Source: an uncultured Syntrophorhabdus sp.
GTDB lineage: Bacteria; Desulfobacterota; BSN033; UBA1163
NCBI GenBank assembly: GCA_964638215.1
Contig: CAZXBI010000002.1
Location: forward strand, 1 to 40,620
Direction of reading: 5' to 3'
DNA: 40,620 nucleotides
Shown: positions 5,575 through 24,831 of the stretch, one piece after another
How the letters are laid out: each line of letters starts with the position of its first letter
How positions within the stretch are numbered: position 1 is the stretch's first letter
The notes under the pieces: generated by a model
Seen by the model: only the letters and a program-made list of their open reading frames with translations
What the model was told of the DNA's origin: nothing
Databases searched by the model: none
Made by a program: the position numbers and the translations under genes

Positions 5575-5577
5575 GCG

Positions 5578-10489: not shown

Positions 10490-10621
10490 ATTGAGTCGTG
10501 TTATCCAGGAAAAACATCAACATGGGGGTTGAATCTTCGGAGACCGAGGGAAAGCAACCGCCCAATCATTCTACTCTGATGAGAGGCAATGAATTTTAAG
10601 GAAGTGTGAGAGGGGAGAAGA

Positions 10622-11917
10622 ATGTCGGAAGGCAATTTTTATCATCAAGCGAACGAGACGATGACGGCGAAACAAAGAGCCTCCTACCTCAACACGAAAT
10701 TGAAGTGGATAGCTCAGTATGCTTATGACCATTCTCCAGCGATGAAAGAGATTATGGACAATGCTGGTGTGAAGCCTTCTCAAATTCGCACCACTCAGGA
10801 TTTGGAGAAGATTCCCATCACCATGAGAGATCATCTCATCGGTTACCAAAAGAAGGCTCCCCCTTTTGGTGGATTTTTAGGAATACCTCTCCATGAACTT
10901 GGACGGATGTTTATCCATGCGGGTCCAGCCAATGTTGCCGTGCCACTTCCGAATTTAGGTTCAGCAAAAAAGTATTGGGAGCGCTGGGCTGAGACCATGT
11001 ATGGGTTGGGGGTGAGAAGAGGAGACATTGCCATCGTCACCCTGAGCTTCCATTGGGTGGGAGCCGGGCAAATGTGCAGCGAGGCAGTCAATTCAGTGGG
11101 GGCGGTAACGATACCGTCAGGACCTGGAAACCTTGAACTTCAGGTGAAGACGATGATTGACAATGGGGTCACGGTCTATTTTGGAACGCCTACCTTTCTT
11201 TATGACATTGCCAATAAGGCAAAAGAGTTAGGTTATAATTTTCCCAAAGATTTTTTCCTAAGGCTTTGTCTATTTACAACGGAAAGAATATCTGCGTCGC
11301 TCAGAGAGATTTACGAAAAGGGATATGGAATTGATGTCCGGGGTCTTTACAGTACGAATGAGACCGGAGGGCTCGCCTACGAGTGTCCGGCGAAAAATGG
11401 CATGCATGTTCCTCATAATGTCATCATCGAAATCGTCAATCCTGAAACAGGGAAGCAGGTCGGTCCAGGTGAAGTCGGGCAAATCGTGGTCACTCTCCTC
11501 GATACTTATCAGCCCATACTGAGACTCGGTACCCCGGACCTTTCCTTATATACAGCTGAACCCTGCGCCTGTGGTAGAACTTCACCTCGAATCCTTGGGG
11601 TGGTGGGCAAAATCGGTGACGCCATTAAAATAAGGACCATGTTCTGCCATCATTATCAAGTGAACGAGGTGGTCTCGAAGATTCCGCAGATTGCCAAGTA
11701 TCAAATTGTTGTCTCTCATGGGGCGAACTATAGGGATGATATGACTTTTAAAGTCGAACTGGTCCAGGAGGACGTGGATAAAGAACAGGTATCTCAAGTC
11801 CTTAAGAAGAACATGAAGGAAGTATGTAAACTCACAGTGGATAAGGTGGAGTTCCTTCCTCAGGGGGTTTTTCCGGAGAAATACGAATGGGTCGTAGACA
11901 CTCGAACCTATGAGTAG
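10622..11917 (+). CDS. PaaK-like (phenylacetate-CoA ligase / F390 synthetase family) adenylate-forming ligase, copy 1
   Basis: 431 aa. N-terminal architecture (LKWIAQYAYDHSPAMKEIMDNAGVKPSQIRTTQDLEKIPIT) and overall size fit the PaaK family. The phosphate-binding loop is degenerate compared with copy 2. Confidence 0.7.
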   Translation: MSEGNFYHQANETMTAKQRASYLNTKLKWIAQYAYDHSPAMKEIMDNAGVKPSQIRTTQDLEKIPITMRDHLIGYQKKAPPFGGFLGIPLHELGRMFIHAGPANVAVPLPNLGSAKKYWERWAETMYGLGVRRGDIAIVTLSFHWVGAGQMCSEAVNSVGAVTIPSGPGNLELQVKTMIDNGVTVYFGTPTFLYDIANKAKELGYNFPKDFFLRLCLFTTERISASLREIYEKGYGIDVRGLYSTNETGGLAYECPAKNGMHVPHNVIIEIVNPETGKQVGPGEVGQIVVTLLDTYQPILRLGTPDLSLYTAEPCACGRTSPRILGVVGKIGDAIKIRTMFCHHYQVNEVVSKIPQIAKYQIVVSHGANYRDDMTFKVELVQEDVDKEQVSQVLKKNMKEVCKLTVDKVEFLPQGVFPEKYEWVVDTRTYE

Positions 11918-11980
11918 GATTTATGAGATTATGTTTTCAAGGTGATAAATCCGCCGAATAAAGAGGATAGAGAAGTTTTT

Positions 11981-13369
11981 ATGTCACAGAAAGTTTGGAA
12001 TGAAAAAGCAGAGACCATGCCAAGGGAGAAGATGGAGGGGCTCAGGTTTGAGAAGTTAAAGAGACAGCTAAAGCGTAGCTATCAGAAGTCGTTATTTTAC
12101 AGGAGAAAATTTGATGAAATAAAAGTTCGACCAGAAGATATTAGGACCTGGGAAGACTTCAGGCGGCTTCCCATCTTTATGACCAAAGAGGATGAGAGGG
12201 AAAGTGAGGCTGAATCGAGGGAGAAGACGGGATATTCCTTTGGGATGCATTGTTTGGTTCCTCCACAGAAGGTGATGATTGTCAGAACGACTTCTGGGAC
12301 GACTGGCACGCCTACCTTTGGTTATTCCTATACGAAGCGCGACTATGAAAGATTCAAGGAATGCCTTGCCAGGGTCTATTGGTTAGCCTCTTTGAGGCCA
12401 GGGGATAGAGTCCTCAATTGTTTTCCCGCATTAGGAGGGATACACAGCAGCGGAGGCCTGTGGAGTGGAGTCCTCCTCCGGATGGGGATTGTTCCTTTGG
12501 AGGTGGGTGCTGAGGCTGGGCCGGAAAGGGCATTGCAATTTGCGATGTTAACAAAGCCTACCGCCCTGTTCGGTTCTCCTTCCTTTGCACAGTCACTCAT
12601 TGAGATATCACCGAAGGTCATAGGAAAGGAAATAAGAGATTTGGGGATTAGAAAGTTGTTGCTCAGCGGCGAACCAGGGATTGAAATGCCAGTAATAAGA
12701 AGGAGGATTGAAGAAGACTTCGGTGGTAAATGGTATGTGTGGTGGGCATTATACGGAGAGGCCTGCGCCGCCTCCTGTCTCGAGGAGGAATACCAAGGGA
12801 TGCACGAAGTGGCTCCTGAATTTAGCATCCATGCCGAGGATATTGTCGATCCGGTGACCCAAGAACCCGTGAAAGTGGAAGAGGGTGCTATCGGTGAAAC
12901 CGTCTTGACGGCGTTAGATCGCGAAGGTTTGTCCTTTATCAAGTATGCAACCGGAGACGTGATTCAACTTTTTACAAAACCTTGCCCATGTGGCTATCCA
13001 GGTCCAGGCTTCCGATTTAAGATGGTAGGCAGAGTTGAAGATATGCTTATTGTAGAAGGTAAGAGGGTATTTCCTATAAGCCTAAGGCAGGTGATCAGTT
13101 CATTTTCACCGAGGCTGACAGGGGCTATGCGAATCGTCCTCTTCGAAAAGCCACCCGAAATCAATCCCCCGATGAGGATGAAAGTGGAACATGGATCAGG
13201 GATAGAGAAGAAGGATCTGACGAACTTGAAAAGGGAAGTAGAGGCGAAAATTCAGATGACCTGTGGCGTCATGCCCGAGATCGAGCTTGTGCCACCGGAA
13301 TCTTTAGGCAGAAGTGTCTGGAAAACGTCTATGTTTGAAAGGAAATACGAAGGAGAAGAAGACAAATAG
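11981..13369 (+). CDS. PaaK-like adenylate-forming CoA ligase, copy 2
   Basis: TSGTTGTPTF P-loop. N-terminus FEKLKRQLKRSYQKSLFYRRKFDEIKVRPEDIRTWEDFRRLPIFMTKED is typical of PaaK. The ORF is open from GTG 11942; the first ATG is at 11981. Confidence 0.8.
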   Translation: MSQKVWNEKAETMPREKMEGLRFEKLKRQLKRSYQKSLFYRRKFDEIKVRPEDIRTWEDFRRLPIFMTKEDERESEAESREKTGYSFGMHCLVPPQKVMIVRTTSGTTGTPTFGYSYTKRDYERFKECLARVYWLASLRPGDRVLNCFPALGGIHSSGGLWSGVLLRMGIVPLEVGAEAGPERALQFAMLTKPTALFGSPSFAQSLIEISPKVIGKEIRDLGIRKLLLSGEPGIEMPVIRRRIEEDFGGKWYVWWALYGEACAASCLEEEYQGMHEVAPEFSIHAEDIVDPVTQEPVKVEEGAIGETVLTALDREGLSFIKYATGDVIQLFTKPCPCGYPGPGFRFKMVGRVEDMLIVEGKRVFPISLRQVISSFSPRLTGAMRIVLFEKPPEINPPMRMKVEHGSGIEKKDLTNLKREVEAKIQMTCGVMPEIELVPPESLGRSVWKTSMFERKYEGEEDK

Positions 13370-13487
13370 CGAACAAAGATGCTCGAAGAGCCAGCCCGCG
13401 GTCCTTCCGCCTTTAGAGTCGTTCGGTGTCATGGCGAGAAGCCGTTACGAGAACCTTTGATGACTGGAAGAGATACCAATTTTTTTC

Positions 13488-13516
13488 TTGACGGAATAGA
13501 TCATTCGATATATATA
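13488..13516 (+). promoter_or_regulatory. putative promoter of the TetR-headed operon with operator-like dyad
   Basis: TTGACG (13488-13493), 17-nt spacer, TATATA (13511-13516). The spacer holds CGGAATAGATCATTCG (13492-13507). Its reverse complement CGAATGATCTATTCCG resembles CCGAATGATTATTCGG at 1837-1852. Confidence 0.4.
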
Positions 13517-13550
13517 TATCAAATTGCTAACAAGTATTGGGTAATATAAA

Positions 13551-14186
13551 TTGAAAAATCCAGTTCATATCAAGCAATCGGAAATCAAGAACAAGGACCT
13601 GGTAGAGAAACGCCGTTTCCAGATTTGTAAGGCGGCTGAGAAGCTGTTCTCAAAAAAGGGATACCATCGAACATCGGTGAAGGAGATTGCAAAGGCCTCA
13701 GGAATAAGCATTGGCTCCCTCTACGATTACATCAAGAATAAGGAGGATATTTTATACTTTTTCTATGAGCGATATGCTCAAGACCTTGAACGCCGGATAA
13801 AACAATCGACTCAAGGCACTCAGGACCCCATCGAGGAGCTTCGGGCCGCCTTTTTAGCCTTCATGGATACGGTCGATCTATTTCAGGAATATGTCTTATT
13901 TTTTTTCCAAGAATCGAAATATATGAAGAAAAGGGATTTGATCAACATCTTCAAATTGGAACTCTACAGCATGGATTTCTTCATCAATATTGTCAAAAAA
14001 GGGAATAATAAATATTTCTCAGTAAAGGACCCCTTTCTCTTTGGAGTATTCCTCAGTTTACTCACCTGCGGATGGGCTCTTAAAAGGTGGAATTTGAAAA
14101 AATATAAGCTCAAGGATTACAAAGAATTTCTGATCGATTTTTGTTTCAATGGTATCCGGGTTCAAAAAGAAGTGGGCAAAGGATAA
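13551..14186 (+). CDS. TetR/AcrR family transcriptional regulator
   Basis: 211 aa. N-terminal HTH signature AAEKLFSKKGYHRTSVKEIAKASGISIGSLYDYIKNKEDIL. TTG start as given by the ORF track. Confidence 0.85.
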   Translation: MKNPVHIKQSEIKNKDLVEKRRFQICKAAEKLFSKKGYHRTSVKEIAKASGISIGSLYDYIKNKEDILYFFYERYAQDLERRIKQSTQGTQDPIEELRAAFLAFMDTVDLFQEYVLFFFQESKYMKKRDLINIFKLELYSMDFFINIVKKGNNKYFSVKDPFLFGVFLSLLTCGWALKRWNLKKYKLKDYKEFLIDFCFNGIRVQKEVGKG

Positions 14187-14256
14187 AAATAGAAATTATT
14201 TTTTTAATTTATTTACAAACGAACGCTCACTAAATATTTTCAAAAAGGAAAATCAT

Positions 14257-15300
14257 TTGGTCGAAAAAAAGGAAAAAAGAAAAAATATTGAAGATCTCAT
14301 TGACCGGCTTCTGACTGGGGAACATGCAGCAGCGGCCAGAATCATCACCTTACTGGAGAATGAGAGAGGAACCCAAGAGACCATCGAACTAATGGAACGC
14401 ATCTTTCCACATACTGGCAAAGCATGGTTAATTGGCATCACGGGTGCTCCAGGAGTAGGCAAGAGTACATTGGTGGATCGCCTCATCGGCCTCATCCGGG
14501 AGGAGGGGTTGTCGGTGGGCGTGATCGGGGTGGACGCGTCGAGCCCCTTCAGTGGAGGCGCCCTGCTGGGCGACCGGATTCGGATGACCTCATGCCAAGG
14601 GGATAATGGGGTGTTCATTCGGAGTATGGCCACCAGGGGGCATCTGGGAGGATTGGCGCTTGCCACACAGGGTGCTATCCGTGTTCTCGATGCGATGGGA
14701 ATGAACGTGGTCCTCGTTGAGACGGTCGGGGTTGGACAGATTGAGTTGGATATCATGCAGACCGTCGATTCTGTCGTCCTGGTCCTAGTTCCTCGAGCTG
14801 GGGATAGGATTCAGGCAATGAAGGCAGGAATCATGGAGATCGCTGATATCTTTGTTGTGAACAAAAGTGACACCGAAGGTGCTGATGCGATGGTGCAGGA
14901 TATCAGGACGGTCCAGGAGATGAGCAAAGTTGGAGGGATGGGTGAACAGGAAGCTTGGATTCCCCCGATCTTGAAGACCGTCGCCACCGCAATCAATACT
15001 CGCGATCTTAACCCACTCTGGGAGGCCATTCGATCCCACCGGCAATTTCTGGTCAGCCATGAAAAACTGCAGGAAAAGAGGGAGAATCAGGATTATCACG
15101 AAATTGTACGGATATTAACCGAGGAGGTGGAAGGGGGGTGTTGGAAGTTACTTCGGGGTAACAGGGAGCTTCAACCGCTTCTGGAAAAGATGTCGAAGAG
15201 AGAGATGGGTCCTTTCCAGGTATCCAGCTTCATTCTATCCAATTTCTACATACCCAAATGGGGTGTCATCGCCATGAAAGGAAAAGGGAGAAAGACATGA
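14257..15300 (+). CDS. meaB: MeaB/ArgK-type G-protein chaperone for B12 mutases
   Basis: P-loop GAPGVGKST, VDASSPFSGGALLGDRIRM, ETVGVGQ and NKSD motifs. The ORF is open from 14149 but that overlaps the TetR gene. The in-frame TTG at 14257 follows AAAGGAA (14244-14250). Confidence 0.85.
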   Translation: MVEKKEKRKNIEDLIDRLLTGEHAAAARIITLLENERGTQETIELMERIFPHTGKAWLIGITGAPGVGKSTLVDRLIGLIREEGLSVGVIGVDASSPFSGGALLGDRIRMTSCQGDNGVFIRSMATRGHLGGLALATQGAIRVLDAMGMNVVLVETVGVGQIELDIMQTVDSVVLVLVPRAGDRIQAMKAGIMEIADIFVVNKSDTEGADAMVQDIRTVQEMSKVGGMGEQEAWIPPILKTVATAINTRDLNPLWEAIRSHRQFLVSHEKLQEKRENQDYHEIVRILTEEVEGGCWKLLRGNRELQPLLEKMSKREMGPFQVSSFILSNFYIPKWGVIAMKGKGRKT

Positions 15301-16085
15301 ACTATGAGACAGTCCTATTAAACAAAGCAGGCTCCATCCTTCATATCAAGTTAAACCGTCCCGAATCTTTAAATTCGATTAGCCTCAAAATGGCCGAAGA
15401 ATTAAACCAAATCGTCGAAGAGGTAAATCGGGATGAAGAAGTGAAGGCCGTTGTCCTTTCTGGTGAGGGAAGAGCTTTCTGCTCAGGGGGAGATATATCC
15501 TTTCTTCAAGTCATTTCTAAAATGACTGCCTCAGAAGTGAGAAGTTTTGTCTACGATGTGCAGAGAAAGCTCGGAAGTATTGCTTACATCGAAAAACCTG
15601 TCATCGCATCTATTCATGGGTTTGCCCTTGGAGCCGGGCTCAGCTTGGCTCTCCTTTGCGATATCCGTATTGCAACAGAAAATACCCTTTTGGGCATGGA
15701 GTTTATCAAGATCGGAATCATTCCTGAACTGGGGGCAAAGCATTTTCTTCCACATCTTGTAGGGGTAGGGAAAGGGTTGGAATTGGCAATGACAGGAGAC
15801 CGAATCAATGGAAAAGAGGCAGAGAGGATCGGGCTGATCAATCGGGCTGTCCCTGAAGATCAACTGGGACCTGTTACTTTAGAGCTGGCAAAGAAGATCT
15901 CAAACTTAGCGCCCATTGCTGTTCAATTGGTAAAGAGATCCTTCAAGGGAGATTTTCTACGGGACCTTGATGCCGCTTTCGAATATGAGGCAGATTTGAA
16001 CTCCATCTGTTATCTCACTGAGGATTTTCGAGAAGCGGCTCAGGCCTTTATGGAAAAGAGGAAACCAGTATTTAAGGGAAGATAG
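15297..16085 (+). CDS. crotonase-fold protein (enoyl-CoA hydratase/isomerase superfamily), copy 1
   Basis: The ATG overlaps the meaB stop (ATGA, 15297-15300). Motifs AFCSGGD and IHGFALGAGLSLALLCD. At the position of the first catalytic Glu of hydratases the sequence reads S. Confidence 0.85.
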   Translation: MNYETVLLNKAGSILHIKLNRPESLNSISLKMAEELNQIVEEVNRDEEVKAVVLSGEGRAFCSGGDISFLQVISKMTASEVRSFVYDVQRKLGSIAYIEKPVIASIHGFALGAGLSLALLCDIRIATENTLLGMEFIKIGIIPELGAKHFLPHLVGVGKGLELAMTGDRINGKEAERIGLINRAVPEDQLGPVTLELAKKISNLAPIAVQLVKRSFKGDFLRDLDAAFEYEADLNSICYLTEDFREAAQAFMEKRKPVFKGR

Positions 16086-16105
16086 AGAATAAAAGGAGGT
16101 GGATT

Positions 16106-16504
16106 ATGGACAAACTATCTGTTGAAGCCATGAACCTTTTCAACAGTGCCGGAGCGTCTAAGGTCGTGGCGACGATCGACTCTTTGGGGTCGCTCAATGT
16201 CGTTCCCAAGGGCTCATTGAGTGCAATTGATGAGAAGACACTGATCTATGCTGAGATTTCAGGGGGAAAGACCGAGACCAACTTGAAGCCAGGGAATCGG
16301 GTGGCTGCTCTGGCATTTACAGCCTCTCCTCTTAACGGGTATCAGGCTAAGGGAAGATTCGAGGGATTTCAAACTAATGGTCCCCTCTTCGAAAAAGTGG
16401 GCAAAAAGGTGAAGGAGATGATCCATGTGGATATCCGAAGTGTGGGGGTGATCAAGATAGAAGAGATCTATTCAGTATCCCCAAACTTCCTCCCGAAGAG
16501 ATGA
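16106..16504 (+). CDS. PNPOx-like / FMN-binding split-barrel protein (tentative)
   Basis: 132 aa. AAGGAGG Shine-Dalgarno at 16093-16099. The pattern ...VVATIDSLGSLNVVPKGSLSAIDEKTLIYAEISGGKT.NL..N.RVA resembles pyridoxamine-5-phosphate-oxidase-related small proteins. No cofactor motif verifiable by eye. Confidence 0.45.
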   Translation: MDKLSVEAMNLFNSAGASKVVATIDSLGSLNVVPKGSLSAIDEKTLIYAEISGGKTETNLKPGNRVAALAFTASPLNGYQAKGRFEGFQTNGPLFEKVGKKVKEMIHVDIRSVGVIKIEEIYSVSPNFLPKR

Positions 16505-16577
16505 AATACTGGCACAATCGAAGGCCTTACAGCATGTTTACCTTACAAAAACGGGCAAAGCAAGGAGGAGGATAAAG

Positions 16578-18281
16578 ATGTTTGACAAAAAAACGTTAGA
16601 AGAAGCAAAAAAGCTTTCGCAGGAATGGCAGGGTATATGTGAAAAACGCTATCCTGGTAAGGATTTTAGCTCGACCACCAATTCAGGGATACCCATCAAA
16701 CCCGTCTATACTCCAGTAGATGTGGAGCATATTGATTATGGAAAAGACATTGGATTGCCGGGCATTTATCCTTACATGAGAGATAACTATGCCATTCATT
16801 ATCAATTCCAGCCCTGGATCAACCAACAGACCCATGGATATGGGTTACCAGAACACACCAGGGAGAGAATGGATTTACTCGCCAAAGCAGGAATGAAGGG
16901 GTATTTTGGCGGCCGGGCATACAATCTGGTATGGGATTTGCCCTCTTATTCGGGTATCGATCCAGATGAGCCCGAAGCGATAGGCTATATTGGCAAAGAT
17001 GGGGTGAGTTGTGTGACCGATGAGGATTTTGACCGGATGCTCCATGACTTAGACTTAACCAAAACAAATGTAGTGATGATTAATTCGGATACCCTTCCTA
17101 TTTTTGCCCATTTCATTGCTTATGCAGACCAAAAAGGAGTTCCCAGAAATAAGCTACGCGGCAACACGATGAACTGGCAGTTTACGGCCTGGTGGCTTCC
17201 AAGCATGTTATGGGAGCCTGAGGGTGGACTGAAACTGGCTACAGACCTAATTCATTTTTGCTGTCGAGAAATGCCCGATTGGAATCACACCAATTTCGAG
17301 TGCCATGCTATTTCAGAAATGGGTGCCAATGCGGTGCAACAGATGGCTTTTGGCATTGCGACCGCCATAGCTGTTGCCGATTCGTGTGTCAAGGCCGGAA
17401 TCGATCCAGATGCATTCATGCCAGGAATGGGATTCCAAATTGCAAATTGTAACGACTTTTTTGAATATGTCTGTATGTTTCGGGCTTGGAGAAGATTATG
17501 GGCGAGAATCGCTCATGAAAGATATGGGTGCAAAAAACCTTCCTCCATGCATCTCAGGGTTCATACCCATACTTCCTGTTATGAGCTAACGAAGCAACAA
17601 CCTCTGGTGAATCTCATTCGGACAACACTTCATGCCTTAGGGGCAGTCTTCTCTGGAACGACCGCCATGGAATTGCCGGGATATGATGAACCGATTGGTA
17701 TCCCCACTGAGAAAGCCGCGATTCTTTCGCTGAGAATTCAGCAGGTCATTTTGGAAGAAACAGGTATTACCAAAGTAACCGATCCACTATCTGGCTCTTA
17801 CTACATAGAATCGCTTACCAATAAGATTGAAGAAGAAGGTAAAAAGATCCTCAAACAGATTGAAGATATAGGTGGCTTCATGAAGGCCCTGAAGGGTGGA
17901 TGGCTTATTTCCCAGTGTCGTGAGAATGCGGTTAGATGGCGTCGCCAGGTGGATAGTGGAGAAAGAGTGGTGATCGGCTGGAACAAGTTTGCTGTGGAGG
18001 AAGAAGAGGAAGTCAAACCGTTTCGTGTCGATCCAGAGGTAGCGCGAGTTGCCATCGAACGAATCAAGAAATATAAAGCGAACCGTGATCAGGCGAAAAC
18101 AGAAAAGGCTTTGAGCAATCTGGTTTCTGCGGCAGAGAGGTTAGACAAAGGAGAATACGGGGTGGTCATGCCGGCAGCGATCGAAGCAGCTAAAGCCAGG
18201 GCGACTTGCGGAGAAATTTCAAAAGCGCTGGGAAAAGTCTTTAAATGGGGACCGAATTTTAGTCCGCTCATGTCATACTAA
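16578..18281 (+). CDS. methylmalonyl-CoA-mutase-family large (substrate-binding TIM barrel) subunit, divergent (mutase 1)
   Basis: 567 aa, colinear with MCM alpha chains: ...GIPIKPVYTP...GLPGIYPYMR..., FRAWRRLWARI, VHTHTSCYELT, LIRTTLHALGAVFSGT, DPLSGSYYIESLT. AAGGAGGAGG Shine-Dalgarno. Confidence 0.85.
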   Translation: MFDKKTLEEAKKLSQEWQGICEKRYPGKDFSSTTNSGIPIKPVYTPVDVEHIDYGKDIGLPGIYPYMRDNYAIHYQFQPWINQQTHGYGLPEHTRERMDLLAKAGMKGYFGGRAYNLVWDLPSYSGIDPDEPEAIGYIGKDGVSCVTDEDFDRMLHDLDLTKTNVVMINSDTLPIFAHFIAYADQKGVPRNKLRGNTMNWQFTAWWLPSMLWEPEGGLKLATDLIHFCCREMPDWNHTNFECHAISEMGANAVQQMAFGIATAIAVADSCVKAGIDPDAFMPGMGFQIANCNDFFEYVCMFRAWRRLWARIAHERYGCKKPSSMHLRVHTHTSCYELTKQQPLVNLIRTTLHALGAVFSGTTAMELPGYDEPIGIPTEKAAILSLRIQQVILEETGITKVTDPLSGSYYIESLTNKIEEEGKKILKQIEDIGGFMKALKGGWLISQCRENAVRWRRQVDSGERVVIGWNKFAVEEEEEVKPFRVDPEVARVAIERIKKYKANRDQAKTEKALSNLVSAAERLDKGEYGVVMPAAIEAAKARATCGEISKALGKVFKWGPNFSPLMSY

Positions 18282-18298
18282 AAAGGAAATAGGGGGTA

Positions 18299-18709
18299 AT
18301 GACTATGGCATCCAATAAAAAGGCAAGGGTATTAGTGGCAAAGCATATTCTAGAAGGTCATGATCGAGGAGGAAAAACGGTTATTAGGATGTTGAGGGAT
18401 GCAGGGGTTGAGGTCATCTATATCATTTATCGGATTCCAGAAGATGTCGTCATGGCAGCGAAGCAAGAAGATGTTGATGTCATCGGTTTAAGCTTTTTCA
18501 GTGGAGGATATCTTGAAAATGTCCCGAGGTTAATGAAATTAATGGAAGAAAATAGGATGAAAGATGTCCTCGTCATCCTCGGAGGGTTAATCCCAGATGT
18601 GGATAAACCAGAGTTAGTCAAAATGGGTGTCAAAGGAGTATTCGGACCTGGGGACGATCTGACAGGATTTATCAACATGGTTAAAAGCCATGCCGAAGCA
18701 AGGGTCTAG
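18299..18709 (+). CDS. B12-binding small subunit of mutase 1
   Basis: 136 aa. RVLVAKHILEGHDRGGK is the B12 His-loop but reads ExHxxG. Also VDVIGLSFFSGGY and ILGGLIP motifs. Starts 18 nt after the large subunit. Confidence 0.85.
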   Translation: MTMASNKKARVLVAKHILEGHDRGGKTVIRMLRDAGVEVIYIIYRIPEDVVMAAKQEDVDVIGLSFFSGGYLENVPRLMKLMEENRMKDVLVILGGLIPDVDKPELVKMGVKGVFGPGDDLTGFINMVKSHAEARV

Positions 18710-18923
18710 ATTCTTTTTCCGACTCGAATATGGAGGAGGTAGAAAAGAGCATCCATCTGGCTGAAGTAAAACTTATTTCTAAGTTCCCGCTCTCGAAAAG
18801 AGATAGAGACGATATTTTCAACCCACAATTGGTGTTAGTCAATCTCATCCATCTCCTGAGTGCTTTCAAAGGCGAACCTTGTAAATGAGAGAATGTTCAT
18901 CCCTAAAGATAGGGGGCTGATCA

Positions 18924-19718
18924 GTGGAGAATAGCTGGAAATTGGGTAGATATTTCACTTTAGAGAAGAGAGATGCTTGTGGGATCGTCTATATGGATCG
19001 ACCCCCTGTCAATTCCTTAGATGTCGAGTTTTTACAAGACTTAGCGAAGATGTCTGACTCGATTTCTGGAGCATCAGAGATAAGAGCTATCGTCCTCACA
19101 AGCCGACTTAAAGTTTTTTGCGCGGGTCTCGATCTGAAGATGGCCTCTCAGATGGATCTTAAAGCGTGGACCCGATATGAAATGGAGTTGGATCATGGTT
19201 TTGGCAAACTGTTGAATCTTCCAAAACCTGTCATTGCAGCCATCAATGGACCTGCCCTTGGAGGAGGGATGGTGATTGCCTTGGCCTCTGACTTTCGTTT
19301 CATTGCTGAGGAGAAAGGAAGAATGGGTCTCCCCGAAGTCAACCTTGGGATTCCTCTTTTAGGGGGATCCACCCAACTTCTGGCTCGAATGTTCAACCGG
19401 GGAGTGGCCATAGAGATTGCTTTTTCTGGAAATACATATAACAGTCATAAGGCTTTGCGTATTGGACTCGTCCACCGGGTCTTCAAGGATGAAGAGCTTC
19501 TGGAGAGATCGGTCGCCTATGCTCAAAAGCTGGCTAAAAAGGGTCCAGTGGCCTTGGCTATGATCAAATGCTGCATCAATGGGAGTTTGAGAAGGGAGAT
19601 TCAGGGAGTACTTCCTTTAGAATTAGAGGCGGTGGAGAAAACGGCCGAAACCGAGGACATGAGAGAGGGGTTTTCCTCTTTCTTTGAGAAACGGAAGCCT
19701 ATTTACAAGGGAAGGTAA
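18924..19718 (+). CDS. crotonase-fold protein, copy 2
   Basis: 264 aa, GTG start. Motifs VFCAGLDL, INGPALGGGMVIALASD, GLPEVNLGI. V replaces the first catalytic Glu. Confidence 0.85.
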   Translation: MENSWKLGRYFTLEKRDACGIVYMDRPPVNSLDVEFLQDLAKMSDSISGASEIRAIVLTSRLKVFCAGLDLKMASQMDLKAWTRYEMELDHGFGKLLNLPKPVIAAINGPALGGGMVIALASDFRFIAEEKGRMGLPEVNLGIPLLGGSTQLLARMFNRGVAIEIAFSGNTYNSHKALRIGLVHRVFKDEELLERSVAYAQKLAKKGPVALAMIKCCINGSLRREIQGVLPLELEAVEKTAETEDMREGFSSFFEKRKPIYKGR

Positions 19719-19731
19719 TGAAAGGAGATAG

Positions 19732-20937
19732 ATGATGAATGACCGTGAAGTTGTCTTTGTATCAGCCGCTCGCACCCCGATCGGAGACTTTGGGGGATCA
19801 TTGAAGGATTTCAGGGCCACTCAACTGGCTGCCATTGCCATTGAGGAGGTCATCCGGAGGATCAATCTTCCTAAGGATCAGATCGAGGATTCGATCTTCG
19901 GTTGCTGCATCCAGAATACTGACGAGATCACTGTGGGTCGGATCGCTGCCCAGTTAGCTGGGCTTCCAGATACCATTCCTGGGGTAACCATTCATCGTCA
20001 GTGCACTTCTTCTATGCAGGCTTTGGTCTATGGTGCTCAGCAGATCCTTTTGGGAGAGGCAGAGATCCTTCTGATCGGAGGAACGGAAAGCATGAGCAAT
20101 ACTCCTTTTACGCTCAAGACTGTTCGATGGGGTGCAAGACTTCGCCATGGAGAGATGACCGATGCCTTATGGGATGCCCTGCATGCCGGAAGTGGAATCT
20201 TAGGGAAGCCCATGATCATGGGTTCTACTGGAGAAAATTTAGCGGAGAAATATAACTTGACTCGAGAACAACAGGATGAAGTTGCGCTGACCAGCCAGCA
20301 CCGTGCTGTGAAGGCGATCAAGGAGGGGAGGTTTAAAGAGGAGATTGTCCCTGTCACCATTCCGCAGAAAAAGGGCCCTCCAAAGATTTTTGATACCGAT
20401 GAACACCCCAGGGAGGGTCTTACCATGGAGGATCTGGCCAGGCTTGAACCTGTCTTCAAAAAGGATGGGACAGTGACAGTAGGAAATGCCTCAGGGATCA
20501 ATGATGGTGCCTGTGCTGCCATCCTCATGTCGAGAAAGAAGGCCGAGAAACTGGGTCTTGAACCATTGGCCAAGCTTCGGATGCCGGGTTATGCTGTTGT
20601 CGGGGTTGATCCCCGATATATGGGATATGCGCCTATTCCAGCAACCGAGATCGCACTGCAAAAAGCAGGTTTGACCCTTAAAGACATTGAGTTGATCGAA
20701 TGTAATGAGGCCTTTGCTGCTCAATACCTCACCTGCGAAAAGCTCTTGGGGTGGGATCGGGAGATCGCCAATGTGAATGGAAGTGGGATCGCCCTTGGTC
20801 ATCCCGTGGGTATGAGTGGGCTCAGGATCGTGATTACCCTCATTTATGAGATGAGAAGAAGGGGTTTGAAAAAGGGCCTGGCTACACTCTGTGGCGGTGG
20901 TGGACAAGGAATGGCAGTGATTCTTGAAAGGGACTAA
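19732..20937 (+). CDS. acetyl-CoA C-acyltransferase (thiolase)
   Basis: 401 aa. Motifs VFVSAARTPIG, nucleophile Cys in HRQCTSSMQAL, NEAFAAQ, GHPVGMSG, CGGGGQG. Confidence 0.9.
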   Translation: MMNDREVVFVSAARTPIGDFGGSLKDFRATQLAAIAIEEVIRRINLPKDQIEDSIFGCCIQNTDEITVGRIAAQLAGLPDTIPGVTIHRQCTSSMQALVYGAQQILLGEAEILLIGGTESMSNTPFTLKTVRWGARLRHGEMTDALWDALHAGSGILGKPMIMGSTGENLAEKYNLTREQQDEVALTSQHRAVKAIKEGRFKEEIVPVTIPQKKGPPKIFDTDEHPREGLTMEDLARLEPVFKKDGTVTVGNASGINDGACAAILMSRKKAEKLGLEPLAKLRMPGYAVVGVDPRYMGYAPIPATEIALQKAGLTLKDIELIECNEAFAAQYLTCEKLLGWDREIANVNGSGIALGHPVGMSGLRIVITLIYEMRRRGLKKGLATLCGGGGQGMAVILERD

Positions 20938-21052
20938 CCTTTGGAACCCATCCCCTCTTGACTGATCGAAATCTCGGCAAAACCGACACCCAACCCCAAA
21001 ATGTGATGAAGGTTGTCCATGAAGGATTTTCGATGGGATTGGAGATTTGGCG

Positions 21053-22180
21053 ATGAAAAGAGTGGAACGATTGAAGGAGGCATTAAGGCAGCCTGAACAG
21101 TGGGCCAATCGATGGAAGGCCCAAGGCGGGAAGGTAATAGGATATCTCTGCACGAATATCCCAGAGGAAATTCTCTTTGCAGCCTCCGCTCTTCCCATAC
21201 GGATCATGGGAAATCCCGGAGAGACAACATCTCTCGCCAATGCCTATCTTCAGAGCAATATCTGTCCTTTTGTTCGAAGTTGCCTGGACCAGGGGCTCAA
21301 AAGAAGATATTCGTATCTCGATGGCATCATATTTCCTCATACCTGTGATGGCATTTGTAAACTCCACGATGCATGGAAGAGATATATTTCCATTCCCTTT
21401 GTCTATATGATGGATTATCCCCACCGTATCTCTTCCATGTCTTACGACTACTTCTCAAAAGAGATCTTGAAGTTGAGGAGGGCTCTTGAAGAATTGACTG
21501 GTCATGAGATAACTGACGATTCCCTTGCCCAGGCCATTGAGATTTATAATGAGAATCGGAGACTCCTTAAATCTCTCTATTCTCTCAGGAAGAGATCAGG
21601 TCCTGATATTTCTGGTTCTGAAATCCTTCAAATCATGAAATTGGGCATGATCATGCCAAAAACAGAACATAATATTTTATTGAAAGAATGGATTGATGAG
21701 ATCAAGAAGAGAGAAAAGGGTGCGGATGAGAAACCAAGAATTGTCATCTCGGGAAGCATCCTGGATAATCCTGATCTCATTCAGGAGATCGAGAAAGGGG
21801 GATGCAGAATAGTAGCAGACGACCTCTGCATAGGAACCCGTTACTTCTGGGATGAGGTAGCACTTGGGGGGAGTCCATGGGAGGCACTGAGTCGACGATA
21901 CCTTGATAAGATTCCTTGTTCATGTATCAACTCTGCGCGTAGCCGATTGGACCATATATTATCAATGGTCAAGGAATTTGAAGCGGATGGGGTCATTTTC
22001 TATAAACTCAAATTCTGCGACAATTATCATTATGATGCGCCACCCTTCCGAGAAAGGTTGAAGTCCTTAGGAGTCCCAGTATTGGAATTGGAATCAGAGT
22101 ATGCCTCCACAGGATACGGTCAATTGAAGACGCGGATTCAGGCCTTTTTGGAGATGATCTCTATCAAAGTAAGAGTATAG
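21053..22180 (+). CDS. HgdB/HadC/BcrC-like subunit of 2-hydroxyacyl-CoA dehydratase / benzoyl-CoA reductase family
   Basis: About 375 aa. N-terminus ...GGKVIGYLCTNIPEEILFAA.ALPIR and C-terminal DGVIFYKLKFCDNYHYD are typical of the HGD-D family. The ORF is open from TTG 21047; ATG 21053 follows GGAG (21041-21044). Confidence 0.8.
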   Translation: MKRVERLKEALRQPEQWANRWKAQGGKVIGYLCTNIPEEILFAASALPIRIMGNPGETTSLANAYLQSNICPFVRSCLDQGLKRRYSYLDGIIFPHTCDGICKLHDAWKRYISIPFVYMMDYPHRISSMSYDYFSKEILKLRRALEELTGHEITDDSLAQAIEIYNENRRLLKSLYSLRKRSGPDISGSEILQIMKLGMIMPKTEHNILLKEWIDEIKKREKGADEKPRIVISGSILDNPDLIQEIEKGGCRIVADDLCIGTRYFWDEVALGGSPWEALSRRYLDKIPCSCINSARSRLDHILSMVKEFEADGVIFYKLKFCDNYHYDAPPFRERLKSLGVPVLELESEYASTGYGQLKTRIQAFLEMISIKVRV

Positions 22181-22182
22181 TC

Positions 22183-22707
22183 ATGGAACGTGGTCTTATC
22201 CAGGTCTATACTGGGAATGGTAAGGGTAAAACGACTGCTGCCTTGGGGTTAGCCTTGAGGGCGGTCGGCCATGGGTTAAAGGTCTTGATCGTTCAGTTTA
22301 TGAAAGGGAGTGTAAACTATGGCGAAAAGGAATCTGCAAGAAAACTTTCTCCCTATTTGACGATAAAAAAGATGGGGAGGGAGACCTTTGTTTCTAAATC
22401 TCATCCCGATCCAGTGGATTTTAGGAATGCTCAAGAGGGGTTCTCCTTAGCAAGAGAAGCGATCAAGAATGAAGAATTTGACATCGTGGTTCTTGACGAG
22501 ATCAATTTGGCTATTGATTATGGCTTAATCCCTCTGTCTGATCTTCTCCAGCTCATCGATTCAAAACCGAAGACAGTAGAACTCATCCTCACCGGTAGAA
22601 ATGCGAAACCAGAAATCTTGGAAAAGGCCGATTTGGTAACAGAAATGGTGGAAAGGAAACACTACTATCATAAAGGGGTTCCAGCACGGCAAGGTATAGA
22701 AATATAA
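22183..22707 (+). CDS. cobO: ATP:cob(I)alamin adenosyltransferase, CobO/CobA/BtuR type
   Basis: 174 aa. GLIQVYTGNGKGKTTAALGLALRAVGHG..V.IVQFMKG and VVLDEIN motifs. Starts 2 nt after the preceding stop. Confidence 0.85.
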   Translation: MERGLIQVYTGNGKGKTTAALGLALRAVGHGLKVLIVQFMKGSVNYGEKESARKLSPYLTIKKMGRETFVSKSHPDPVDFRNAQEGFSLAREAIKNEEFDIVVLDEINLAIDYGLIPLSDLLQLIDSKPKTVELILTGRNAKPEILEKADLVTEMVERKHYYHKGVPARQGIEI

Positions 22708-22846
22708 TTCCAAAAGTTCGGGGTAGGAGATCCGAACGTATTCTATGGAAGGGAAATGCGCTTTTTCTCAATTGGGCTGCCGTCCAAAGTGCAACGGAGT
22801 GGGGAGAGGAGAACGCAAAGCCCAAGGGATAGGAGAGATAGTTCAC

Positions 22847-23620
22847 ATGATCACTGTAGGGATCGATATTGGGGCTTTAACGGCAAAGGCCGTTGTGACG
22901 AAGGATGGAACGATCCTCTCTTGGGCAATCCTGACGACAGGAGAAGAAGGGGCTGTGGCCGCTCAGAAGGTCTTGCAAGAAGCCCTTGAAAAGGCGCAGC
23001 TTTCAATCAAAGAGATTCATCGGATTGCCTCGACAGGCTATGGAAAAGAAACGGTCCACTTTTCCAAACAGCAGGTTCCAGATATGATCTGTCAGGCTAA
23101 AGGGAGTCGATGGTTCTTACCAACAGGAAAGACCTTTATCGACATTGGCGCTGAGACAAGTCGGGCCATCCGATTGGATGGACGGGGAAAGGTGGTTGAC
23201 TTTGCGGTCAATGATAAATGTGCATCAGGAACAGGGATCTTCTTAGAGACTATGGCAAAGGTCTTGGAGGTTCCTCTGGCTGATATGGGGAAATTGGCAT
23301 CCCTATCGAAAGAGCCGGTGGCCATCAGCAGTATGTGTGCGGTTTTCGCCGAATCAGAGATCGTTTCTCATATTCACCAGAAAGTTCCAAAATCTGACAT
23401 TGCCGCGGGAATCCATCAATCTGTGGCTCAGAGGATTATGGGACTTTTAGATAAGATTGGAGTTGAAGTGGATGTGGGGTTGACAGGAGGAGTCGCCAAA
23501 AACTCAGGTGTGGTAAAGGCCCTTGAAGAGCGAATCGGGCTTTCTATTTTTCTCCCGGAGGAACCTCAGATCATAGGGGCTGTCGGTTGTGCTCTGGTGG
23601 CGGCAGGAGTGAATAGATGA
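22847..23620 (+). CDS. activase-type ATPase 1 (BcrAD_BadFG / HgdC family)
   Basis: ITVGIDIGALTAKAVV phosphate-1 motif. The two cluster-ligand Cys sit in NDKCASGTG and SSMCAVFAESE. Also TGGVAKN. The ORF is open from 22745, but AGGAGAG (22831-22837) precedes ATG 22847. Confidence 0.85.
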   Translation: MITVGIDIGALTAKAVVTKDGTILSWAILTTGEEGAVAAQKVLQEALEKAQLSIKEIHRIASTGYGKETVHFSKQQVPDMICQAKGSRWFLPTGKTFIDIGAETSRAIRLDGRGKVVDFAVNDKCASGTGIFLETMAKVLEVPLADMGKLASLSKEPVAISSMCAVFAESEIVSHIHQKVPKSDIAAGIHQSVAQRIMGLLDKIGVEVDVGLTGGVAKNSGVVKALEERIGLSIFLPEEPQIIGAVGCALVAAGVNR

Positions 23621-24819
23621 ACTTCCAAACATCAAAAAAGACGGTCAACCTTTCGAAAGAGATCTGGCCGATGGTGAAACAGTACTATGCCTGGTGCAAG
23701 GAAGCAAAACAGGCTGGTAAGAAAGTGGTCTGGACTGTCGGTCTTGGACCGAATGAACTTCTCCACGCCTTCGGTCTTGCCCCAATTTTTTTGGAACAGT
23801 ACTCCATCGTCATGGCAGGGAGACATCAGGTGACGAGGTACCTGGAAATGGCGGAGAATCTGGGTTTTTCAAGAGACAGTTGCTCTTATCATCGGGCCTT
23901 GATCGGTTACGGTTTGGAACCCGATGGTTTGATGATTCCGAAGCCAGACCTGGTCTTAGCCACGGCGACCCCATGCGACAGTTCAAGTAAGAGTTTCATC
24001 GCCTTGGTGAATCGTCTCGGTATCCCTTACTACTATCTGGATATCCCATTCAACTGCACGGAGGGCGCTGGAGAGGCCCATCAGTTCGACTATGTCGAGG
24101 AGCAGTTAAAAGAACTTGTCTCCTTTTTGGAGAAGGAGACTGGAGTATCACTAACCAGTGAGAGGCTTGGAAAAGTGGTGGGATTGGCCAATCGGGCTAA
24201 TGATCTTTGGGCCAAGATCAATGATTTGCGGAAGGCCGTTCCCTGCCCCATGACTGTGGCAGATGAGATGGGCCTCGCCTATCCACTCTTTCAGTTGCCT
24301 GGGACCGAACAGACGGTGCAATTTTACGAGAAGGTGCTTGCTGAGGTGGGAGAGCGAGTTCGGAAAGAGGAAGGAGCCATCCCAAATGAGCGATATCGAA
24401 TTCTATGGCTCGGACCTGCAGCATGGTATCACTTACGGCTTCTCAATTATGTTGAGGATTACGGCGGGGTTCTCGTGAAATCTGACTTTGACTACCTGAC
24501 CCATGGATGGATTGATCCTGGGAATCCCTTGAGAGGAATAGGAGAGAAGATGATCTCCGGATTCCTCAATGGTGTTGTGGAGAACCGCATCCAGCTGGCA
24601 CGACGATTCGTCCAAGACTACCGGATCAATGGCGTCATCGCCTTTTCTCACTTTGGATGTCGCCAATATGGAGGCGGGCAGAGAGCGGTCAAGGATGCCC
24701 TTTTTGAGGAGTTCGGAATTCCGACCCTTATCCTTGAGGGGGATAACATCGATGAGAGAAACTATGCCGATGACCAAGTGAGGAGTCGGATTGAGGACTT
24801 TATTTCTTTAATGATGTAG
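23617..24819 (+). CDS. HgdA/HadB/BcrB-like subunit of 2-hydroxyacyl-CoA dehydratase / benzoyl-CoA reductase family
   Basis: 400 aa. ATGA overlap with the upstream ATPase gene. Motifs KKVVWTVGLGPNELLHAFGL.P, ATPCDSSSK, INGVIAFSHFGCRQYGG. Confidence 0.8.
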   Translation: MNFQTSKKTVNLSKEIWPMVKQYYAWCKEAKQAGKKVVWTVGLGPNELLHAFGLAPIFLEQYSIVMAGRHQVTRYLEMAENLGFSRDSCSYHRALIGYGLEPDGLMIPKPDLVLATATPCDSSSKSFIALVNRLGIPYYYLDIPFNCTEGAGEAHQFDYVEEQLKELVSFLEKETGVSLTSERLGKVVGLANRANDLWAKINDLRKAVPCPMTVADEMGLAYPLFQLPGTEQTVQFYEKVLAEVGERVRKEEGAIPNERYRILWLGPAAWYHLRLLNYVEDYGGVLVKSDFDYLTHGWIDPGNPLRGIGEKMISGFLNGVVENRIQLARRFVQDYRINGVIAFSHFGCRQYGGGQRAVKDALFEEFGIPTLILEGDNIDERNYADDQVRSRIEDFISLMM

Positions 24820-24831
24820 GAGGGGAGAGAG

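Follow-up and report, generated by a model that had tools for sequence, protein, structure and literature searches.

The 40,620 bp stretch of DNA analysed here, positions 1 to 40,620 of contig CAZXBI010000002.1 from an uncultured Syntrophorhabdus sp. (hereafter the window), carries a split acyl-CoA mutase, mutase 1 (M1), whose lineage is, as far as sequences tell, uncharacterised, conserved, spread over several phyla and equipped with a rebuilt active site. M1 consists of a large substrate-binding, TIM-barrel subunit of 567 aa (16578-18281, + strand, PF01642) and a small B12-binding subunit of 136 aa (18299-18709, + strand, PF02310, E = 3e-21), and its genes are located 1.3 kb downstream of meaB on the same strand. 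Radical rearrangement of carbon skeletons with B12 is classically illustrated by the acyl-CoA mutases, for which to our knowledge only about half a dozen substrate specificities have been described. The Thr195-Gln197-Asp199/His244/Gln330 core was the same in all methylmalonyl-CoA mutase (MCM), 2-hydroxyisobutyryl-CoA mutase (HCM), isobutyryl-CoA mutase (ICM)-like and pivalyl-CoA mutase (PCM) references tested, and specificity is read from two or three positions. The M1 lineage has replaced this whole core, including His244, together with Tyr89, yet keeps the cofactor machinery and a dedicated chaperone.

Profile comparison found that residues 33-555 of the large subunit correspond to positions 1-511 of the 512 of PF01642 (E = 1.1e-142), and the TIGR00641 score was 442.8 bits against a cutoff of 303.8. 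HMMER matched the large subunit to HCM (4R3U, E = 1.6e-96) and human MCM (E = 2e-95), and 4R3U was also the top Foldseek match (TM 0.84) of the AlphaFold2 (AF2) model. This model has a pLDDT of 71, falls below 50 at residues 60-124, 331-340 and 362-382, and was used for fold assignment alone. The MCM residues Tyr75, Gly91, Glu247, His328 and Glu370 are kept; the adenosyl-ribose ligand Glu370 and the His328/Gly91 framework correspond to E371, H329 and G87 of M1, which were identical in all 40 sequences of the M1 clade (that of the window and 39 relatives). These data show that M1 is intact, belongs to the acyl-CoA mutase superfamily and is under purifying selection, with its own B12 subunit and chaperone. 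We infer that it is a functional adenosylcobalamin (AdoCbl)-dependent mutase catalysing the 1,2-rearrangement of a CoA thioester.

Residues were numbered on the P. shermanii chain, in which index + 1 equals the literature number, and this anchor was checked on 13 known residues (Tyr75, Thr77, Met78, Arg82, Thr85, Arg87, Gln197, Arg207, Tyr243, His244, Gln330, Asn366 and Glu370). The stretch GTIQNDILKEFMVRN of canonical mutases reads GNTMNWQFTAWWLPS in M1 (residues 195-209); written as a consensus, KLxGT(I/V)Q(N/A)DILKE(F/Y)xx(R/Q) has become KLRGNTMNWQFTAWWLP. M198 lies opposite Gln197, W200 opposite Asp199, and Pro208 or a one-residue gap opposite Arg207. This segment came out the same in HMMER alignments with the MCMs of human and P. 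shermanii and with HCM and in three MAFFT alignments, none of which contained a displaced QND/Arg motif or a hidden indel. An earlier note on this DNA, which had reported Gln, Asp and Arg as gone, was right on this point.

Two residues that the same note had taken as retained are lost. The tyrosine of the TMY motif, which it had read as Tyr89, is Tyr79 by the anchored numbering, and the true Tyr89 (the Y of TIRQY-AGF) lies opposite M1 Thr85 in WINQQTHGYG. A neutral polar substituent on the substrate, once deduced from the retention of Tyr89, fell with this mapping. Likewise, the anchors WN and E(x)GA are aligned with no indel between them, which places M1 His243, the supposed His244, at the Tyr243 position and Ala244 at that of the catalytic His244. 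The latter position is Ala, Gly or Cys in 40 of 40 M1-clade sequences and mostly Gly or Phe in the wider superclade described below.

The full set of changes from MCM to M1 in the acyl pocket is Tyr89 to Thr85, Ala90 to His86, Ser114 to Asn116, Ala116 (Asp117 in HCM) to Val118, Phe117 to Trp119, Thr195 to Asn196, Gln197 to Met198, Asp199 to Trp200, Arg207 to Pro208 or a gap, Tyr243 to His243, His244 to Ala244, Gln330 to His331, Gly333 to Cys334, His364 to Glu365 and Asn366 to Pro367. As the pocket holds no Arg or Lys, a non-carboxylate substrate, as previously proposed, is plausible. The bulky substrate offered with it fares worse, since the exchange of Gln, Asp and Phe for Met, Trp and Trp fills pocket space rather than opening it and the partner genes are of short-chain type. 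The CoA contacts are also changed (Thr77 to Ile, Met78 to His, Arg82 to Gln, Thr85 to Ile, Arg87 to Gln, Arg283 to Gly, Ser285 to Gly and Phe287 to Gln), and with them three CoA-binding arginines, Arg82, Arg87 and Arg283, are gone. A six-residue loop, GYFGGR (G108-YFGGR-A114), is inserted ahead of the strand that bears position 114. With the insertion placed before strand beta-2, its Arg113 should, by analogy with the MCM/HCM topology, lie at the CoA-nucleotide end of the barrel and not in the acyl pocket. The loop with this invariant residue would compensate for the lost arginines.

In the small subunit, VAKHILEGHDRGG stands against the canonical AK(M/V)G(L/Q)DGHDRG at equal spacing, with Asp608 replaced by Glu, as had been noted; the stretch AKHILEGHDRGG was aligned with AK(V/M)G(L/Q)DGHDRG of HcmB and MCM (2YXB; HcmB, 4R3U_C). 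The base-off/His-on loop K-HIL-E-G-H-DRG (ExHxxG in place of DxHxxG) keeps the cobalt-ligand His and the upstream Lys, and although Asp is replaced a carboxylate is retained, so that the Glu would keep the Lys-carboxylate-His relay to cobalt. ExHxxG was also found in two relatives (L036 and L006) and in the Dehalococcoidia type of ~70% identity (KHWME[CI]HDRG), whereas the type of ~65% identity has KHWIDIHDRG instead. Since the motif recurs among relatives, the exchange would be a tolerated lineage-specific variant and not a lesion.

The homologue search gave 39 clusters at 62-93% identity, after which identity dropped to 45-51%. N196, M198 and W200 were identical in 40 of the 40 aligned M1-clade sequences. 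In a 38-sequence alignment of the close clade, with a mean column identity of 75%, N116, N196, M198, W200, G283, G285, Q287, R113 and W212 were invariant and H86, H243, C334 and P367 near-invariant; the variation observed at clade level was Tyr89 to Thr or Val, His244 to Ala or Gly, and Gln330 to His or Asn. As the new residues are invariant across the clade, the replacements are not random decay. In a scan of one genome per GTDB species, the clade was found almost only in metagenome-assembled genomes (MAGs) of Dehalococcoidia/Chloroflexota, often with two paralogues per MAG, and also in a Desulfovirgula MAG (83% identity, the nearest named relative) and a Desulfobacteraceae MAG.

The clade is nested in a wider superclade, GYFG/GNxMNW. 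Among the homologues listed, 81 had 45-51% identity and came from Alpha-, Beta- and Gammaproteobacteria, Polyangia, Acidobacteriota, Actinomycetota, Methylomirabilia and Bacillota. Each superclade trait, namely the GYFG insertion, Asn114, Asn195, Met197, Trp199, the absence of His244, and His or Asn at 330, is present in M1 and was common to 72-80 of these 81. They differ from M1 in keeping Tyr243 and in having Gly or Asp at 207, and the marks of the M1 clade inside the superclade are His243, Pro208, Cys334 and Trp119. M1 is thus a deeper outlier at residue level than the earlier note had held, but not a lone oddity. In a neighbour-joining tree the superclade, including a 41%-identical enzyme from a Sphingobium plasmid, was monophyletic and lay outside HCM, PCM, ICM-like enzymes, MCM and the second mutase of the window (M2); this apartness, like the signatures given below, holds against the references included, which do not comprise RcmA, Ecm, IcmA, IaaG or ActD/MatB. 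Among the references included, M1 did not cluster inside a characterised clade.

A library of representatives at 50% identity contained 1,170 related proteins at E <= 1e-30, of which the best full-length one was 47% identical to M1. Among the 150 listed matches closest to M1, 129 were full-length representatives; at positions 197/199/207/244 the MCM pattern was present in 26 of them and the ICM/HCM pattern in 8. Read from these patterns, the uncharacterised pockets of the family form a long tail, and that of M1 is one well-conserved example. No described clade or sequence-similarity network of acyl-CoA mutases was found in the literature search.

Annotated plasmids supplied reference sequences for comparison with M1: HcmA (M. 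petroleiphilum, X. autotrophicus), IbcP (Mycolicibacterium ELW1), Xaut_5043/5044, which we take to be the PCM of Kitanishi et al. 2015, an ICM-like Phe89/Gln207 enzyme (Deinococcus), split MCM-like enzymes (Brevibacillus, S. parvulus) and ScpA (Azospirillum). At positions 89/116/195/197/199/207/243/244/330 the signatures are Y/A/T/Q/D/R/Y/H/Q for MCM, I/D/T/Q/D/Q/Y/H/Q for HCM, F/A/T/Q/D/Q/Y/H/Q for the ICM-like enzyme, L/L/T/Q/D/N/Q/H/Q for PCM and T/V/N/M/W/-/H/A/H for M1. M1 was 30-36% identical to each reference and unlike all four types at 89, 195, 197, 199, 207, 243, 244, 330 and 366. The suggestion that it matches no known specificity pattern is upheld for the signatures tested, M1 lying outside the Y/R of MCM, the I/D/Q of HCM, the F/Q of ICM-like enzymes and the L/N of PCM.

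The carboxylate-binding pair of MCM and ethylmalonyl-CoA mutase (ECM), Tyr89 and Arg207, where the ECM criterion is that of the literature and no ECM sequence was compared, is Thr85 and Pro208 or a gap in M1, which scored 363.8 bits against a cutoff of 876 for NF006944. ICM is defined by Phe89 and Gln207 in an otherwise canonical TxQxD/YH/Q330 pocket; M1 has Thr, Pro and a non-canonical pocket, and scored 160 bits against a cutoff of 1500 for NF045497. The Ile90/Asp117/Gln208 of HCM, as in M. petroleiphilum HcmA and ELW1 IbcP, is Thr85/Val118/Pro208. From PCM, with Leu89/Leu116/Asn207/Gln243 and His244 kept, M1 is set apart by 30% identity and a separate branch.

Of the known systems, HcmAB (Aquincola / Methylibium, 4R3U; gene order hcl-hcmB-meaH-hcmA) is the best sequence and fold match, with split subunits of equal sizes. 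The window shares with HCM operons a PaaK-fold ligase closest to 2-hydroxyisobutyrate-CoA ligase (HCL), MeaB, an adenosyltransferase, a 3-hydroxyacyl-CoA dehydrogenase (3HCDH) and a thiolase, but this is a likeness of context and not of the enzyme. M1 is only ~33% identical to HcmAB, with Ile90/Asp117/Gln208/His244 and Thr195-Gln197-Asp199 replaced by Thr85/Val118/Pro208/Ala244 and Asn-Met-Trp; it also has the GYFGGR loop, and its operon has two flanking crotonases, a HupZ-like gene and TetR instead of GntR. The RcmAB-type mutase, which forms (R)-3-hydroxybutyryl-CoA, is clustered with MeaB and 3-hydroxybutyryl-CoA dehydrogenase in Firmicutes and sulfate reducers (PMC7888143). RcmAB of Kyrpidia tusciae / B. 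massiliosenegalensis, which is split like M1, and the acetone-pathway mutase of Desulfococcus biacutus / Desulfosarcina cetonica, which is grouped with it, were compared by description only. RcmA reportedly (Weichler 2015) has Val at the HCM Asp117 position, where M1 has Val118. Published accounts of RcmA single out Asp117 to Val as the main pocket change, whereas the replacement in M1 is wholesale; RcmAB is nevertheless the main residual risk to the novelty of M1.

PCM (Xaut_5043/5044) resembles M1 in departing from the canonical ILKE segment and from Tyr89/Tyr243 (Leu and Gln in PCM), and its operon resembles the window in combining TetR, MeaB and a PaaK-like ligase with a Liv-type ABC transporter that has a FadD-like gene fused to it. 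Unlike M1, PCM keeps Thr195, Gln197, Asp199, His244 and Gln330 and is without the GYFG insertion. In IcmAB/IcmF, as in M1, both Tyr89 and Arg207 are replaced, and the substrate is non-carboxylate; however, the Phe/Gln signature, as in the Deinococcus split enzyme, sits in an otherwise canonical pocket, and IcmF matched M1 only in part (E = 4e-37; 23-24% identity in the structural alignment). With MCM (P. shermanii MutB, human MMUT, ScpA) M1 has in common the fold, the B12-binding module and the MeaB/MMAA chaperone system, but Tyr89, Gln197, Arg207, Tyr243, His244, Gln330, Asn366 and the CoA-binding Arg82/Arg87/Arg283 are all replaced.

M1 is located in a one-strand acyl-CoA catabolic cluster with a GC content of about 46%. 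The operon is headed by a TetR-family regulator (13551-14186, + strand, PF00440), a gene also kept in the 90%-identical relative L070 and occurring too in the X. autotrophicus PCM operon and in L009. It is followed by a MeaB-type G-protein chaperone (14149-15300, + strand, PF03308, E = 1e-85) of 383 aa, which has a 347-aa counterpart at the equivalent place in L070; M1 is, as had been stated, the MeaB-linked copy, with the same order repeated in this relative. The MeaB ORF overlaps the TetR gene by 38 nt (14149-14186), and the true MeaB start therefore probably lies downstream of 14149; the next ORF, encoding a crotonase-family enoyl-CoA hydratase (ECH), overlaps that of MeaB by 43 nt (15258-15300). 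The true starts of MeaB and of this crotonase are probably both further downstream, and the arrangement suggests tight translational coupling.

The crotonase immediately upstream of M1 (15258-16085, + strand, PF00378, E = 2e-61) had 3-hydroxypropionyl-CoA dehydratase 5ZAI as its best solved match, followed by short-chain hydratases, and its L070 orthologue was 79% identical. Between it and M1 lies a gene for a 132-aa split-barrel protein (HupZ / PNPOx-like; 16106-16504, + strand, weak PF01243), whose best solved relative is the haem-binding HupZ 5ESC (E = 6e-11) and which has a 94% identical orthologue at the same position in L070 (2629-3027) and L071 (412-810). It may, by these resemblances, handle a tetrapyrrole or flavin, or bind or reduce a corrinoid. 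Downstream of M1 are a second crotonase-family hydratase (18924-19718, + strand, PF00378, E = 4.5e-51), with short-chain hydratases as best solved matches and an 82% identical L070 orthologue, and a thiolase (19732-20937, + strand, PF00108 and PF02803), found at the same position in L070. Searches of 13200-21200 for promoters and terminators gave no signal above shuffled expectation.

Upstream of the operon the cluster contains a Liv-type ABC transporter with a fused FadD-like gene (1938-8830), an (S)-type 3HCDH (9524-10489, + strand, PF02737 and PF00725) and two PaaK-fold ligases. The first ligase (10622-11917) is closest to that of the X. autotrophicus PCM operon. The second, an acyl-CoA ligase directly upstream of the operon (11942-13369, + strand), has the HCL 6HDW as its nearest solved relative (E = 3.5e-47), phenylacetate-CoA ligases being weaker (2e-39), and was 27-29% identical to HCLs from three HCM operons. 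Beyond the thiolase, a four-gene set resembling benzoyl-CoA reductase (BCR) and 2-hydroxyacyl-CoA dehydratase (HGD) is present (21047-25632, + strand), followed by an acyl-CoA dehydrogenase (25629-26786). Two genes of the set are HGD-D/BcrB/C-like and the other two encode different BcrA/D-type ATPases; after the first gene, a CobO/BtuR-type ATP:cob(I)alamin adenosyltransferase (22183-22707, + strand, PF02572, E = 6e-66) is inserted. The set scored below the cutoffs of the benzoyl-CoA reductase, 2-hydroxyisocaproyl-CoA dehydratase and double-cubane reductase models alike.

Inspection of relatives found related gene sets. L070 has a compact operon of TetR, MeaB, ECH, the 132-aa protein, the large and small mutase subunits (MutL and MutS), ECH, thiolase and 3HCDH, then an enoate-reductase-like gene, with no acyl-CoA dehydrogenase. 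In L068 (78% identity) MutL and MutS are followed by a 147-aa protein, ECH, 3HCDH and ligase; in L036 an ABC transporter, thiolase, 3HCDH, MutS and MutL are found; and in L012 (83%) the BCR/HGD-like four-gene set adjoins the mutase as in the window. Dehalococcoidia loci of type A have the order (old yellow enzyme, OYE)-CrtI-like flavoprotein-Gct-like A/B-ECH-MutL-MutS-ECH, with a divergent set comprising a 4-hydroxybutyryl-CoA dehydratase homologue (1U8V, E = 5e-106, cluster ligands conserved), 3HCDH and a short-chain dehydrogenase/reductase (SDR). In type B a ligase, a 2-oxoacid:ferredoxin oxidoreductase and a D-2-hydroxyacid dehydrogenase are divergent from Gct-like-ECH-MutL-MutS. We considered whether the upstream and downstream crotonases of the window correspond by position to those of the Dehalococcoidia as orthologues and dropped the idea, both window crotonases being nearer the "downstream" type. 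Distant superclade members lie in thiolase-MutLS-3HCDH(-MeaB) clusters, some of which add TetR, ligase, ECH, metallo-beta-lactamase-fold protein and biotin-carboxylase genes.

The Gct-like "CoA-transferase" pair (7365-9115 of L004 and equivalents), present in 29 of 39 M1-clade loci, is glutaconate-CoA-transferase-like, with approximately equal scores for the IpdAB steroid ring hydrolase and the AibAB 3-methylglutaconyl-CoA decarboxylase. No NCBIfam transferase model matched the pair, and it may not be a transferase. Type-B loci often carry another divergent mutase on the opposite strand (L015, 7160-8893; L018, 12162-13919; L019, 7574-9304; L020, 12146-13912; all -), in which GV(I/V)TPPTVSAPVCLYGG and then an insertion of ~25 aa replace the QND/Arg segment; this third mutase has Ile at 244, Asn at 330 and a canonical GLDGHDRG in the small subunit.

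The window and the validated 2-hydroxyisobutyrate (2-HIBA) cluster of Mycolicibacterium ELW1 (PMC13188929) have in common the ligase, MeaB, split mutase, adenosyltransferase, 3-hydroxybutyryl-CoA dehydrogenase and thiolase. Most of the ELW1 gene set recurs in the Methylibium and Xanthobacter operons, whose gene orders were inspected; the operons of M. petroleiphilum and X. autotrophicus are 2-HIBA operons (PMC7176365).

Taken together, these data point tentatively to a short-chain, non-carboxylated, probably hydroxylated and branched acyl-CoA as the substrate of M1, with a pathway logic like that of HCM; we put the probability of this reading at about 0.45. Short hydroxyacyl/enoyl-CoA chemistry is indicated because the pocket holds no carboxylate ligand and because the recurrent partner genes are crotonases, 3HCDH, thiolase, HCL-like ligase, 4-hydroxybutyryl-CoA dehydratase and D-2-hydroxyacid dehydrogenase. 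After uptake, a small branched (hydroxy)acid would be converted to its CoA ester by the HCL-like ligase. M1 would then linearise this short (C4-C5) branched acyl-CoA, its CoA-thioester carbon undergoing a 1,2-shift as in HCM, and the flanking crotonases, 3HCDH and thiolase would carry the product on to acetyl-CoA units. The acid/base role of the lost His244 presumably passes to a new histidine (His243, His331 or His86), and the adjacent MeaB and the adenosyltransferase at 22183-22707 would service M1, the latter by AdoCbl supply or repair.

Several observations weigh against this reading. The HCM-defining Ile90, Asp117, Gln208 and His244 are all lacking in M1, so an HCM-like reaction would need a different binding mode, and AF2 confidence is low exactly at the pocket segments. 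In many replacements a polar residue has given way to a non-polar one (Gln to Met, Asp to Trp, Arg to Pro, His to Ala, Asn to Pro), which would also fit a purely alkyl substrate. A simple HCM route needs no two crotonases, and acyl-CoA dehydrogenases are found near several relatives as well as in the window. The two closest long-contig contexts, the window and L012, both carry the BCR/HGD-like set. Finally, because the Gct-like pair scores about equally with IpdAB and AibAB, the Dehalococcoidia loci that contain it may serve alicyclic or isoprenoid-derived acids.

The strongest competitor, although we consider it rather doubtful, is an alkyl-type mutase like ICM or PCM, which would convert a branched saturated acyl-CoA, e.g. 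isobutyryl-CoA from valine or isobutyrate, to a straight chain for beta-oxidation. Its pocket would be explained by the largely hydrophobic replacements (M198, W200, P208, A244, P367, V118, W119) and by a small aliphatic residue at 89 as in HCM (Ile) and PCM (Leu), but M1 also gains three His, two Asn and one Glu, unlike ICM or PCM. The cluster mirrors the X. autotrophicus PCM operon in architecture, including the ligase at 10622-11917, most like its ligase; 2-oxoacid:ferredoxin oxidoreductase genes recur in type-B loci; and acyl-CoA dehydrogenases adjoin the mutase in L006, L034, L004/5 and L017-21. However, the compact operon of L070 has two crotonases and no such dehydrogenase, the minimal superclade clusters consist of 3HCDH and thiolase only, and the window already holds in M2 a mutase with the ICM-like Phe at 89.

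A specific form of hydroxyacyl chemistry, for which the odds are poor, is a natural mutase converting 3-hydroxyisobutyryl-CoA to 4- (or 2-)hydroxybutyryl-CoA, or lactyl-CoA to 3-hydroxypropionyl-CoA. On the former route a crotonase would hydrate methacrylyl-CoA to 3-hydroxyisobutyryl-CoA, M1 would form 4- or 2-hydroxybutyryl-CoA, an AbfD- or HGD-type dehydratase would give crotonyl-CoA, and the second crotonase would lead to 3-hydroxybutyryl-CoA and on to acetoacetyl-CoA. Such a route would employ all genes of the type-A Dehalococcoidia locus (ECH-Mut-ECH and the adjacent AbfD-3HCDH) and, in the window, the acyl-CoA dehydrogenase, ECH, M1, HGD/BCR-like set, ECH, 3HCDH and thiolase. The literature searched contained no natural 4-hydroxybutyryl-, 3-hydroxyisobutyryl- or lactyl-CoA mutase but only the engineered Lcm, and lactyl-CoA mutase has been described as new-to-nature (PMC11599936).

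A carboxylated substrate, namely a substituted succinyl- or malonyl-CoA (e.g. alkyl-, aryl- or hydroxymethyl-succinyl-CoA) whose carboxylate would be bound by a new His or by Arg113 in place of Arg207, is improbable. Mutases of this kind have been published (indoleacetate iaaGH, PMC8360864; actinonin/matlystatin ActD/MatB, PMC5719088), and the frequency of the glutaconate-CoA-transferase-family pair in M1-clade loci would fit. Both MCM carboxylate ligands are lost, though, and the GYFGGR insertion, which should sit at the CoA-nucleotide end, coincides with the loss of Arg82, Arg87 and Arg283. No decarboxylase or carboxyltransferase is present in the M1 operon. A distant superclade member, in L010, does lie between a glycyl-radical enzyme, a CoA-transferase and a carboxyltransferase, but that glycyl-radical enzyme is PFL2/HypD-like and not fumarate-adding. 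L010 itself (4166-13532) encodes a 49%-identical mutase, with an activase beside the glycyl-radical enzyme and a CoA-transferase of two subunits. The alkylsuccinyl-CoA mutase of anaerobic alkane degraders was also considered for a 51%-identical homologue (P0046) adjoined by a glycyl-radical enzyme, and was rejected; that enzyme was PFL2/HypD/sulfopropanediol-dehydratase-like and had no benzyl- or alkylsuccinate-synthase match.

Still less can be said for a bulky alicyclic or aromatic acyl-CoA, from which M1 would remove a quaternary or branched carbon together with BCR-like or Ipd-like ring-opening enzymes; we regard it as very unlikely. The BCR/HGD-like set adjoining M1 in the window and its relative in L012, the OYE, Gct/IpdAB-like, EchA19-like, SDR and FadD3-like genes of Dehalococcoidia loci, and a Trp-rich pocket that could stack on a ring are in keeping with it, but L070 is without BCR-like genes within its 10-kb contig, the partner hydratases and ligase look short-chain, and the exchange of small residues for Trp and Met would shrink the pocket. 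A catalytically dead paralogue, serving only structure or regulation as the MutA beta chain does in P. shermanii MCM, can hardly be right. Tyr89, His244 and Arg207, which MCM mutagenesis has shown to matter, are lost, but M1 comes with a B12 subunit whose His ligand is intact and with a MeaB of its own, it retains Glu370/His328/Gly91, the replacement residues are invariant across 62-93% homologues in several phyla, and MutA-type chains match only part of the domain and score far lower.

If M1 is active, it would represent a second way to build a mutase active site and would almost certainly add a new substrate to the family. Lactyl-CoA and 4-hydroxybutyryl-CoA mutases are wanted for synthetic CO2-fixation and for methacrylate and 3-hydroxypropionate pathways, and have so far only been engineered (PMC11599936); a natural hydroxyacyl mutase, if this is what M1 is, would offer a catalytic solution without Tyr89 and His244 and an anaerobe route from methacrylyl-CoA. 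The clade is abundant in Dehalococcoidia, and may partly explain their use of branched or recalcitrant organic acids.

The 41%-identical superclade member of the Sphingobium sp. WTD-1 plasmid (L011; NZ_CP119128.1, 175818-197440), with GGNLTNYIWDFFGH in the large subunit and IDSHDRA in the small one, is located in a Liu/Atu-like cluster with isovaleryl-CoA dehydrogenase, carboxyltransferase, biotin carboxylase, AtuA, two NTF2 proteins, MeaB, SDR and OYE. These surroundings suggest that the enzyme, which comes from a cultured organism, acts on a pivalate-like or quaternary-carbon substrate.

The second split mutase of the window, M2 (large subunit 26976-28658, small subunit 28738-29160, + strand), is also non-canonical, with an ICM-like Phe at 89, an MCM-like Arg in the 207 region, Asn at the His244 position, a 3-aa insertion within the QND segment (GTTQNDIGTMLIGYITRNS) and DGHWRG in the small subunit. 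Its identity was 36% to M1 and 40-43% to the references for HCM and split MCM. On the opposite (-) strand, 29556-32892 contains genes for a CrtC/AttH-like lipocalin hydratase (382 aa) and for an ADP-forming acyl-CoA synthetase (693 aa), by which ATP could be gained from the acyl-CoAs that the cluster yields as end-products.

At the left end of the window, bases 1-852 are stop-rich in frame 1, the sole frame translated, and no ORF of at least 120 aa was listed before 853. A link to lactate utilisation through the LUD-domain gene at 853-1494 was rejected, as no Lut partner was evident. Downstream of the catabolic cluster, 33960-36101 (+ strand) contains a PD-(D/E)XK "REase-ARP" nuclease gene (33960-34826) and a PIN-domain gene (34914-35303); the two probably form a small islet devoted to defence or of toxin-antitoxin type, with no apparent relation to the mutase.

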